Assembly (NCBI GenBank): GCA_963815035.1
Contig: CAWFFC010000026.1
Coordinates: 97,587-161,586, forward strand
Source of the DNA: an uncultured Gemmataceae bacterium
Lineage (GTDB): Bacteria > Planctomycetota > Planctomycetia > Gemmatales > Gemmataceae
Length of the DNA stretch: 64,000 nucleotides
Direction: 5' to 3'
In this document: positions 55,916 to 57,332 of the stretch, piece after piece
How the letters are laid out: every line of letters begins with the position of its first letter
How positions within the stretch are numbered: the first letter of the stretch is position 1
Position numbers and translations under genes: made by a program
Notes under the pieces: generated by a model
What the model saw: only the letters and a program-made list of their open reading frames with translations
Told to the model about the DNA's origin: nothing
Database searches by the model: none

Positions 55916-57332
55916 ATGATGAAATAGCCCGCATTCATGCCCGCGAAGTCCTCGATAGCCGCGGCACGCCAACGGTCGAGGTCGAGGTGCACTGCGCCGA
56001 CGGATCGATGGGACGGGCGATCGTGCCTTCGGGCGCCAGCACCGGCAAACATGAGGCTGTCGAACTCCGCGACGGCGACCCGAAGCGTTATGGCGGCAAG
56101 GGAGTCCGCCGCGCGGCCCAGAATGTCAACACGGAGATCGCGCCGAAACTGATTGGCCGCAGCGCCGCGGATCAGTTCGAAATCGATCGCATCATGATCG
56201 AACTCGACGGCACGCCAAACAAGTCGCGGCTCGGGGCGAATGCAATCCTGGGCGTCTCGCTGGCTGTCGCCCATGCCGCGGCCGCAACGAGAAAGATGCC
56301 GTTGTGGCAATATCTGTCGACTACTCTGTTGCCGACGTCGCACCGCGGGGCCAACCCCCTCCAGCCCCCCCCGATTCGGGGGGGGCTGGAGGGGGTTGGC
56401 CCCGCGGCGACTCGAACCACTCTTCCGCCCCTTACTCGGGGGGGGCTGGGGGGGGTCGAACCCGCGGGCACCGCCCCTCCCTCCCCCTCCCCATGGTCAA
56501 CCTCATCAGCGGCGGCCTGCACGCCGGCGGCAACCTCGATTTTCAGGACTTTCTGCTCCTGCCCATCGGGGCTCGATCCTATTCCGAAGCGCTGGAGATG
56601 ACCTTCTCGGTTTATTGCACGCTCGGATCGGTATTAAAACAACATGGCTATGAAGGCGTGCTCGTCGGCGACGAGGGCGGCTATGGCCCCAAGCTCCCCG
56701 AGAATGACCGCGCGATCGAAATAATCCTCGCCGCCTTCGCGAAAATCGGCCTGAAATCGGGAGCCGACGCCGCGATCGCCCTTGATGTTGCTAGCACGCA
56801 TTTCTATCGCGGCGGCCGCTATCATCTCCGCGACGCGGGAGGCGAAGCGCTCACCTCCGAGGAAATGGCCGAACGCCTCGGCAGTTGGGTCAACGCCTAC
56901 CCAATTCTGAGTATCGAGGACGGCCTCGCCGAGGACGACTGGGCCGGCTGGCAGATTCTCACGCAAATGCTCGGCAAGAAAATTCAACTGATCGGCGACG
57001 ATCTGTTTGTAACCAATCCCGAACGCTTGAAGCGTGGCATCGCCGAGGGCGTGGCGAATGCCGTCCTAATAAAAGTGAATCAAATCGGGACGTTAACCGA
57101 AACTTTGGAAGTGCTGCGGATCGCCCGCGACGCGGGTTATCGTACGGTGATCTCCGCCCGCAGCGGCGAAACCGAGGACAGCACCATCGCCGACCTCGCG
57201 GTTGGAACGGGCGCCGGTCAAATCAAAATCGGCTCCGTCGCCCGCAGCGAACGGCTGGCGAAATACAACCAGTTGTTACGCATCGAGGAACAGCTGGGCG
57301 ACCAAGCGAAATTCGCTGGGTGGAACACCTAG
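55912..57332 (+). CDS. eno: Enolase carrying a ~160-bp GC-rich palindromic insertion (56330-56500) in the loop between PLWQYL and PMVNLISGG; there is a frameshift within the insert
   Basis: [36 protein letters not shown].. N-terminus (ORF 55507..56601) and ..[60 protein letters not shown].. (ORF 56304..57332). Confidence 0.85.

Follow-up and report, generated by a model that had tools for sequence, protein, structure and literature searches.

Palindromic repeats of the RPE-1 type (Rickettsia palindromic elements, RPEs), credited to Ogata et al. in 2000, reportedly lie in frame within Rickettsia protein-coding genes, housekeeping genes included; RPE-1 is said to be an imperfect repeat of about 100–150 bp, present in tens of copies in AT-rich reduced genomes. 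The mitochondrial GC clusters of Magnusiomyces ('byps'), credited to Lang et al. in 2014, are reportedly skipped by translational bypassing. Repetitive extragenic palindromes (REPs) of the GTAG and CGTC superfamilies typically occur in >100 copies per genome, mostly outside genes and often as inverted dimers. In-frame intragenic REP monomers, dimers (20–30 aa) and clusters (43–82 aa) have been described for these superfamilies (Di Nocera et al. 2013, PMC3733652), and the same study documents intragenic REPs in Opitutus terrae of the Planctomycetes-Verrucomicrobia-Chlamydiae (PVC) group, Rickettsia (RPE-4/6) and Thauera, as well as REP families in Planctomycetes (PMC3733652). In sponge mitochondrial DNA (mtDNA), repetitive hairpin elements are described (PMC2800124). 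Here, we analyzed a stretch of 64,000 nt from an uncultured Gemmataceae bacterium (assembly GCA_963815035.1, contig CAWFFC010000026.1, positions 97,587 to 161,586; hereafter the window), in which the enolase gene (eno) carries a GC-rich palindromic insert. We consider it likely that a miniature GC-rich palindromic repeat, similar to REPs, RPEs and transposable elements of the miniature inverted-repeat type (MITEs), has colonised the enolase linker loop, where it adds about 129 nt that would be translated as a Pro/Gly-rich segment.

A palindromic insert in the enolase coding sequence

The window was compared with two relatives, L001 (ENA ERZ27292707, contig k141_526996), which is an independent assembly, and L002 (GCA_041478255.1). 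The features of the enolase locus are as follows.

55912–57332, + strand: enolase gene (ATG at 55912, stop codon TAG at 57330–57332)
55912–56340, + strand: N-terminal part of enolase, up to the codon preceding the insert (tblastn with the L001 and L002 orthologues, Ka/Ks)
56343–56407, no strand: unit 1 (U1), perfect palindrome, CCGCGGGGCCAACCCCCTCCAGCCCCCCCCGA-T-TCGGGGGGGGCTGGAGGGGGTTGGCCCCGCGG (repeat search, shuffles, RNA fold)
56408–56437, no strand: decayed left arm and centre of unit 2 (U2), CGACTCGAACCACTCTTCCGCCCCTTAC-TC (direct repeat, 60-nt spacing)
56438–56467, no strand: intact right arm of U2, GGGGGGGGCTGGGGGGGGTCGAACCCGCGG (direct repeat, comparison with L001)
56468–56492, + strand: C-rich junction, GCACCGCCCCTCCCTCCCCCTCCCC, which encodes the conserved PSLPLP and holds a C4 run at 56474–56477
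56469–57332, + strand: C-terminal part of enolase, as assembled in a different frame from the N-terminal part (tblastn, Ka/Ks)

The enolase ATG overlaps the stop codon of an upstream gene for an APH-like kinase. The segment PLWQYL runs to position 56319 and PMVNLISGG begins at 56490, with a G/C-rich block in between. In tblastn searches with the L001 and L002 orthologues, the N-terminal part was covered in frame 1 (55912–56319) and the C-terminal part in frame 3 (56475–57326, 91–93% identity). Relative to a loop of 15 residues, the insert as assembled is 128 nt long (56341–56468), somewhat less than the ~160 extra bp estimated in a first-pass annotation of the window, and removal of exactly these positions yields one continuous enolase of 430 aa with a 15-residue loop. 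This reconstruction matched thousands of enolases at 70–85% identity (E-values down to 1e-242) and retrieved Gemmataceae-like enolases; the invariant enolase motifs were kept in an alignment with 17 homologues, and the precomputed Pfam domains of the homologues include Enolase_N. The ratio of nonsynonymous to synonymous substitution rates (Ka/Ks), computed against both L001 and L002, was 0.07–0.08 for the N-terminal part and 0.045–0.065 for the C-terminal part, and both halves are under strong purifying selection.

The repeat search confirmed that a palindrome lies inside the enolase coding sequence, with the sequence read in the first-pass annotation; its coordinates had been placed 10 nt too high (56353–56417), and its arms, given there as 30 bp, are 32 nt each. 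The two arms of U1 (56343–56374 and 56376–56407) are complementary at 32/32 positions around a single central T, so that the unit totals 65 nt with the core C8-GATTC-G8. The second, partial copy of the right arm was also borne out: the right arm of U2 is a direct repeat of that of U1 at a spacing of 60 nt (81% identity), the left arm of U2 is decayed, and the sequence CCGCGG at 56402–56407 is common to the end of U1 and the start of U2. The window thus holds two units in tandem, at a single site within a gene. The 7-nt sequence GCACCGC is found at 56340–56346 and, as a direct repeat, once more within the C-rich junction.

The palindrome is not due to chance. The 30-nt arm was matched in none of 100 shuffled sequences, and all four G8/C8 runs of the window fall in the enolase insert. 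The RNA hairpin formed by U1 has a folding energy of –82 kcal/mol (z = –11), and that of the surrounding 181-nt region is –131 kcal/mol (z = –9), while the fold of U2 (56402–56467) reaches merely –38 kcal/mol. In the RNA of 56436–56494, the right arm of U2 (G8CUGG8) pairs with the downstream PSLPLP codons (CCCCUCCCUCCCCCUCCCC) at –40 kcal/mol, a value no better than that of shuffled sequences (z = –1.2); the C-rich codons for PSLPLP are common to the window and L001 and are not found in L002. A search of the insert against Rfam gave no family above threshold, with sub-threshold matches to generic hairpins (miRNA precursors) only.

The same loop in related enolases

The enolase of L001 is 87% (N-terminal part) and 93% (C-terminal part) identical in amino acids to that of the window, and the order APH-eno-sulfotransferase is the same in both. 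At positions 5511–5571, L001 carries a single perfect palindrome of 61 nt (30+1+30 nt), CCGCGGGTTCGACGCCCCCCTTCCCCCCCC-GAGTC-GGGGGGGGAAGGGGGGCGTCGAACCCGCAGG. This palindrome and U1 both begin exactly 14 codons past the LW of PLW.Y. In L001, the element lies in frame within an open reading frame (ORF) of 458 aa and is read as ARGFDAPLPPPSRGGKGGVEPAG; the peptide matching the right arm of U2 is RGGKGGVEPAG, and the longer stretch of L001 facing U2 is ..LPPPSRGGKGGVEPAG. Comparison of the arms gave 26/30 identical positions between U2 (right arm) and U1, 27/30 between U2 (right arm) and L001, and 23/30 between U1 and L001; the differences that set U1 apart from U2 and L001 (4–7 of 30 positions) are present in both of its arms simultaneously.

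That the loop joining PLWQYL to PMVNLISGG received an insertion, as proposed from the window alone, agrees with the alignment of 17 homologues, in which most relatives are short at this point and more distant enolases have a short loop, and also with the L001 palindrome, which is placed at the identical codon. Among full-length relatives of above-normal length, each of the four closest has its extra residues in this loop. Different in-frame inserts of 13–28 aa, without C8/G8 runs, were found there in P0002, P0004 and P0011, and the enolase fragments P0127 (..PPTPPDTGGG..), P0155 and P0152 carry more Pro/Gly-rich inserts. To judge from these alignments, the enolase linker loop is a recurrent insertion site. 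A candidate palindrome copy in the loop of one fragment (P0155; L064 150–200) was set aside as a weak, vestigial and decayed palindrome; its enolase stops early in a contig of 999 nt that looks chimeric or truncated. Among planctomycete-type fragments generally (P0127, P0152, P0155, P0205, P0125 and P0165), the loop has 5–30 extra residues, several of them Pro/Gly-rich (e.g. ..FPPTPPDTGGGTLTEAGG..).

The structural setting of the loop was considered in an AlphaFold2 model of P0001 (predicted local distance difference test score, pLDDT, 84.5; predicted template modelling score, pTM, 0.88). Residues ~141–170 are modelled as coil with pLDDT values of 45–61; the N-terminal domain's last helix (131–140) precedes them, and the first barrel strand (173–180, PMVNLISGG) follows. 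The model thus puts the insert region in a disordered linker preceding the first barrel strand. Such an interdomain linker would plausibly tolerate insertions.

In a separate observation, the next-closest relative is represented by two assemblies deposited independently of each other, L002 (13710–13806) and L003 (~11498), both of which have contig ends of G/C-rich, palindromic, low-complexity sequence (..GGCCCCCCCCGGGGGGG..GGGGGGGCCCCGCGGGGGCCC), ~40 nt past the stop codon of a 384-aa gene. Part of it, CCGCGGGG, is similar to the end of the U1 arm. The contigs L004 and L005 stop at about this point too, but lack the palindromic sequence. The L002 and L003 ends suggest either a repeat or some structure that is difficult for sequencing.

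Reading frame of the insert

The frame starting at 55912 terminates at 56601, and the C-terminal part lies in the frame of the ORF 56304–57332. Since 128 nt is 2 mod 3, one added base makes the insert 129 nt or 43 codons. Compared with L001, the window has one base fewer in the stretch that leads from the palindrome to the conserved CCC TCC CTC (PSL); when a base is restored, for example by extending C4 to C5 at 56474–56477, the window equals L001 plus exactly 60 nt, that is, one extra unit, and the frame of U2 is the same as in L001. Thus, the missing base would be placed most simply just 3' of U2, in the C4 run, although any run is possible. The first-pass annotation had located the break in the C8/G8 runs and supposed that the true insert may be in frame; the break is indeed probably not real, and its location cannot be pinned to a C8/G8 run. 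The Pro/Gly-rich loop that it had written out for a read-through was reproduced by translation.

At least seven genes of the window besides enolase change frame in the middle, as judged from orthologues or Pfam models.

4–2482, – strand: split gene (frame split)
17276–23116, – strand: giant A2M-like gene, four or more pieces (frame splits)
27404–30236, + strand: class-I aminoacyl-tRNA synthetase, four or more pieces (Pfam PF00133)
41790–42966, – strand: pyridoxal phosphate (PLP) decarboxylase, two pieces (frame split)
50768–52229, – strand: DnaA-family gene, two pieces (orthologue comparison)
52562–54081, – strand: SASA-domain gene, two pieces (orthologue comparison)
57481–58616, – strand: sulfotransferase, two pieces (orthologue comparison)

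In tblastn comparisons with the L001 and L002 orthologues, the DnaA-family, SASA and sulfotransferase genes switch frame at ~50975, ~52950 and ~58530, respectively, and at the codon level these switches are one-base indels in ordinary GC-rich context. Four pieces of the synthetase in different frames (27404–29104) tile positions 151–185, 184–248, 318–365 and 365–411 of PF00133, with the anticodon-binding domain in yet another piece. Four real breaks in a synthetase that the cell cannot do without are impossible, and the assembly must therefore contain frequent one-base indels. The enolase frame break is almost certainly such a sequencing or consensus error.

Similar palindromes in other genomes

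Genome and metagenome collections were scanned with the core pattern C8-NANTC-G8. Many matches to the core pattern were poly-G/poly-C junk at contig ends. Many copies of the arrangement C7-8/spacer/C8-GA(N)TC-G8/spacer/G7-8 were found in a Chloroflexota metagenome-assembled genome (MAG), JAIFLK01 bin_187 (loci L013, L014, L016, L018, L024 and L028), an organism that is also present in separate metagenome assemblies; the metagenome contigs with such copies are L032, L039, L059 and L063. The family there consists of palindromes of ~45–50 nt with the form CTA-C8-N2-5-C8-GA(N)TC-G8-N2-5-G8-TAG and the centres TGACTCA, TGAGTCA and TGATTCA. Among the scorable copies from bin_187 and the unassigned metagenome contig L059, 9/11 are embedded in long frames that run on in both directions without a stop; the host frames include an A2M/TED protein, a GH20 hydrolase and also membrane proteins, and one ORF of L013 holds four copies. 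The copies are read as PPPIRGG.GG, PPDSGG.GGG or PPLTQGGVGGG, the peptides also seen in the window, and strain variants of them occur in separate assemblies (L013 versus L039).

A further case adjoins eno itself. In the APH-like kinase gene of L008, a perfect GC palindrome of 30 nt with 12-bp arms (470–499, CCCTCTCCCCCG-CAAAGC-CGGGGGAGAGGG) forms an in-frame insertion of 10 aa (..CLTPSPPQSRGRGG..), which is present also in L009 and L010 and absent from the orthologues of the window, L001 and L002. On the strength of the L008 kinase and the Chloroflexota copies, the enolase insert appears to be one of a class and not a one-off. The kind, in-frame intragenic palindromes, is already known, while the G8/C8-GANTC form was not found in our literature searches.

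Two protein searches contributed little. The 43-aa insert peptide, searched with HMMER against 1.84 billion representatives, matched two unrelated repeat proteins only, low complexity hampering the search, and six concatenated palindrome-encoded peptides gave no scored match, probably because low-complexity words swamp the candidates.

Tentatively, these observations can be read more widely: perfect palindromes may form an undescribed class that crosses phyla, with the enolase insert as a member in a planctomycete lineage and multiple copies in Chloroflexota, and that is marked by C8/G8 blocks, a GANTC centre, in-frame position and peptides of the PPPxRGG or PPDSGG type.

Origin of the insert and alternative explanations

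We propose the following course of events. An element would have entered the loop that links the N-terminal domain and the triosephosphate isomerase (TIM) barrel. The window would represent a dimer, in which the older U2, its left arm decayed, corresponds to the single unit of L001, and the younger U1, still a perfect palindrome, was added directly upstream and shares the CCGCGG end with U2. The true insert would most likely be 129 nt or 43 codons long, with units 60 nt (20 codons) apart, the one-base deficit being a sequencing or consensus error, and its translation would give a surface loop that is disordered and Pro/Gly-rich. The element would survive because purifying selection spares only those insertions that keep the frame and fall in a tolerant loop. 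Its cost may be an mRNA hairpin of about –80 kcal/mol for the ribosome to unwind, and the element probably does nothing for enolase. From these comparisons we infer both the differing ages of the two units and their origin from a mobile element or repeat family.

Neighbouring synonymous sites are highly diverged between the window and L001 (proportion of synonymous differences, pS, 0.42–0.53; Ks 0.6–0.9), yet palindromy is perfect both in U1 and in the element of L001, and the arms of U2 and L001 differ by only 10%. A neutrally drifting ancestral insert would lose its symmetry, as the left arm of U2 has done, so that intact units should be young or actively kept symmetrical. The U1 and L001 units would then be either new copies of a repeat family or palindromes whose symmetry is maintained. 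On the wider reading given above, palindromes that stay symmetrical beside near-saturated synonymous sites would imply ongoing mobility by an unknown enzyme or self-templating repair.

Several findings weigh against this proposal. No further copy of the arm was found in the window (three mismatches allowed, and by blastn-short) or in 9.7 kb of L001. No transposase gene or gene for a REP-associated tyrosine transposase (RAYT) is linked to the element in the window, where, with no second copy of the element, a repeat-flanked RAYT gene is impossible. The stems of U1, U2 and L001 start with CCGCGGG and not with a GTAG or CGTC tag; a CGTC lies 3 nt upstream of the stem in the window only (56336–56339) and is absent in L001. 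The core-pattern scans returned no planctomycete copy, although they missed even the enolase locus, whose source genome was evidently not covered. Finally, the one-base error is inferred, and the other indels checked in the window sit outside long homopolymers, with no direct sign that the missing base lies in a C/G run.

The most serious alternative, which we regard as rather unlikely, is a local origin. Here, the palindromes would not be copies of a mobile family but would have arisen on the spot, by hairpin-primed or template-switch synthesis at an ancestral insert, and intrastrand template switching (quasi-palindrome correction) would keep them perfect; the element would be ancestral to the lineages of the window and L001 and partly duplicated in that of the window. 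In favour of this, the window and L001 agree in their left boundary, down to the codon and the initial CCGCGGG; the symmetry extends up to a single central base and includes the 'loop' GA-N-TC, which suggests copying at the DNA level and not selection on an RNA loop; and no other copy occurs within the 64 kb. However, the 4–7 differences per 30 positions that separate U1 from the U2 and L001 arms, present in both arms, show that U1 was not freshly copied from the unit next to it, and the recurrence of the core at many unrelated Chloroflexota loci calls for a family that proliferates or else for a shared mechanism of great specificity.

That the frame break is real, and that enolase has recently been inactivated with a second eno copy elsewhere, is very unlikely. 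The length of the insert (2 mod 3) and the stop of the N-terminal frame at 56601 would fit a pseudogene, but Ka/Ks values of 0.05–0.08 in both halves, with no other defect, and the in-frame element of L001 do not. On the same logic, at least seven other genes, including the essential class-I synthetase and the DnaA-family gene, would be broken as well, which is not credible biology.

Still less probable is recoding, by –1 frameshifting or transcriptional slippage on a G8/C8 run, or by ribosomal bypassing between the GCACCGC repeats. A –1 shift would exactly suit 128 nt, G GGG GGG heptamers stand in the zero frame at 56379–56385 and 56439–56445 together with hairpins of –38 to –82 kcal/mol, and deletion of exactly 128 nt between the 7-nt repeats restores the ORF. 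Nevertheless, many frame breaks of the window lie in ordinary context without a slippery motif, so that a special mechanism is unneeded; the L001 and Chloroflexota copies are plainly in frame; and no stop-codon or take-off/landing codon architecture is evident. It is equally hard to believe that the palindrome itself arose during assembly or library preparation (fold-back chimera, poly-G), as the error-prone assembly and the poly-G/poly-C matches at public contig ends might suggest, because the arms are not copied from the flanking gene, enolase continues on both flanks, a perfect palindrome related to it occupies this very codon in a different organism and a separate assembly, and the Chloroflexota copies show strain variants in separate assemblies.

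Colonisation of the loop by a palindromic repeat remains the explanation that we prefer, and it has consequences for annotation: neither 'pseudogene' nor 'recoding' is an appropriate label for this enolase, and other findings of the frameshift or pseudogene type in the window should be discounted in view of the indel-ridden assembly.

Other features of the window

Between the convergent eno and sulfotransferase genes, an imperfect hairpin with ~21-bp arms (57340–57415, GAGGAACGCAGGAAGACAGGA..TCCTGTGTTCCTGCCTTCCTC) contains an internal T-run and is probably a bidirectional terminator; Rfam gave generic hairpin matches only for this sequence. The lone other perfect palindrome detected by the scan of the window, unrelated to the enolase insert, is located at 23111–23143 (15-bp arms, CTGCAATCAACTCGC-GGA-GCGAGTTGATTGCAG), where the giant A2M-like gene of the – strand has its 5' end (ORF start 23116), and possibly represents an operator or regulatory site. 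A replication origin near the DnaA-family gene was considered and dropped, as the region has no DnaA-box cluster and no clear skew switch.

Comparison with known systems

The first-pass annotation had likened the insert to the in-frame palindromic elements of Rickettsia. As regards behaviour, the likeness holds: L001 has its element in frame, the L008 kinase offers a second example, and comparable in-frame repeats are documented (PMC3733652). As in RPEs, the palindrome lies within a housekeeping gene; it is in frame in L001, would be translated, and the extra peptide would plausibly spare the fold. In the window, the insert is one base short of being in frame, in an assembly ridden with indels. 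Membership in the RPE family was not borne out: the units of the window are 60–65 nt long, perfect, of >85% G+C and built of C8/G8 blocks around GANTC, and there is one site in 64 kb as against tens of copies per genome, so that size, composition and copy number all differ from the general description of RPEs.

The GTAG/CGTC REPs are similar in being small, GC-rich stem-loops that occur in ORFs singly, as dimers or in clusters, and the dimer of the window would encode 43 aa. Their units are 20–40 bp and imperfect, whereas the stems of the window are 30–32 bp and perfect. With respect to MITEs, the whole unit is an inverted repeat, and the dimer of 128 nt has GCACCGC on either side, a repeat that is missing from L001; as a target-site duplication this sequence is ambiguous, a 7-nt match in C/G-rich DNA possibly being due to chance. 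No parent insertion sequence (IS) with matching ends was seen for the element. As for programmed –1 frameshifting or slippage, G8 runs and hairpins exist, while L001 is in frame and the window has many unrelated breaks. The byps and the hairpins of sponge mtDNA resemble the insert as GC-rich palindromic mobile hairpins that invade coding sequences; byps are organellar and bypassed, whereas in-frame read-through is the supported reading for the enolase insert.

The Chloroflexota palindromes come close in sequence, with half-sites CCCCCCCC-TG-CCCCCCCC-GA compared with CCCCCCCC-AG-CCCCCCCC-GA in the window, and they too are mostly intragenic and in frame; they differ in other respects (~45–50 nt, flanks CTA..TAG compared with CCGCGGG..CCCGCGG in the window; 47–51% G+C; multicopy). 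Such apparently undescribed C8/G8 palindromes, in frame inside genes of more than one phylum, are the most interesting lead of this analysis. If the link to Chloroflexota is true, they would offer a tractable system for studying how repeats spread and keep their symmetry and how ribosomes and polymerases handle them, and the enolase linker loop would serve as a natural 'landing pad' for comparing the gain and decay of inserts across lineages.

Taken together, the enolase insert is REP- or RPE-like in its working, but by defining features it stands outside both the RPE and the GTAG/CGTC REP families. It extends translated palindromes of the Rickettsia type in housekeeping proteins to a high-GC planctomycete, and does so in an extreme form, with perfect 30-bp G/C stems of about –80 kcal/mol in the mRNA of an essential gene.

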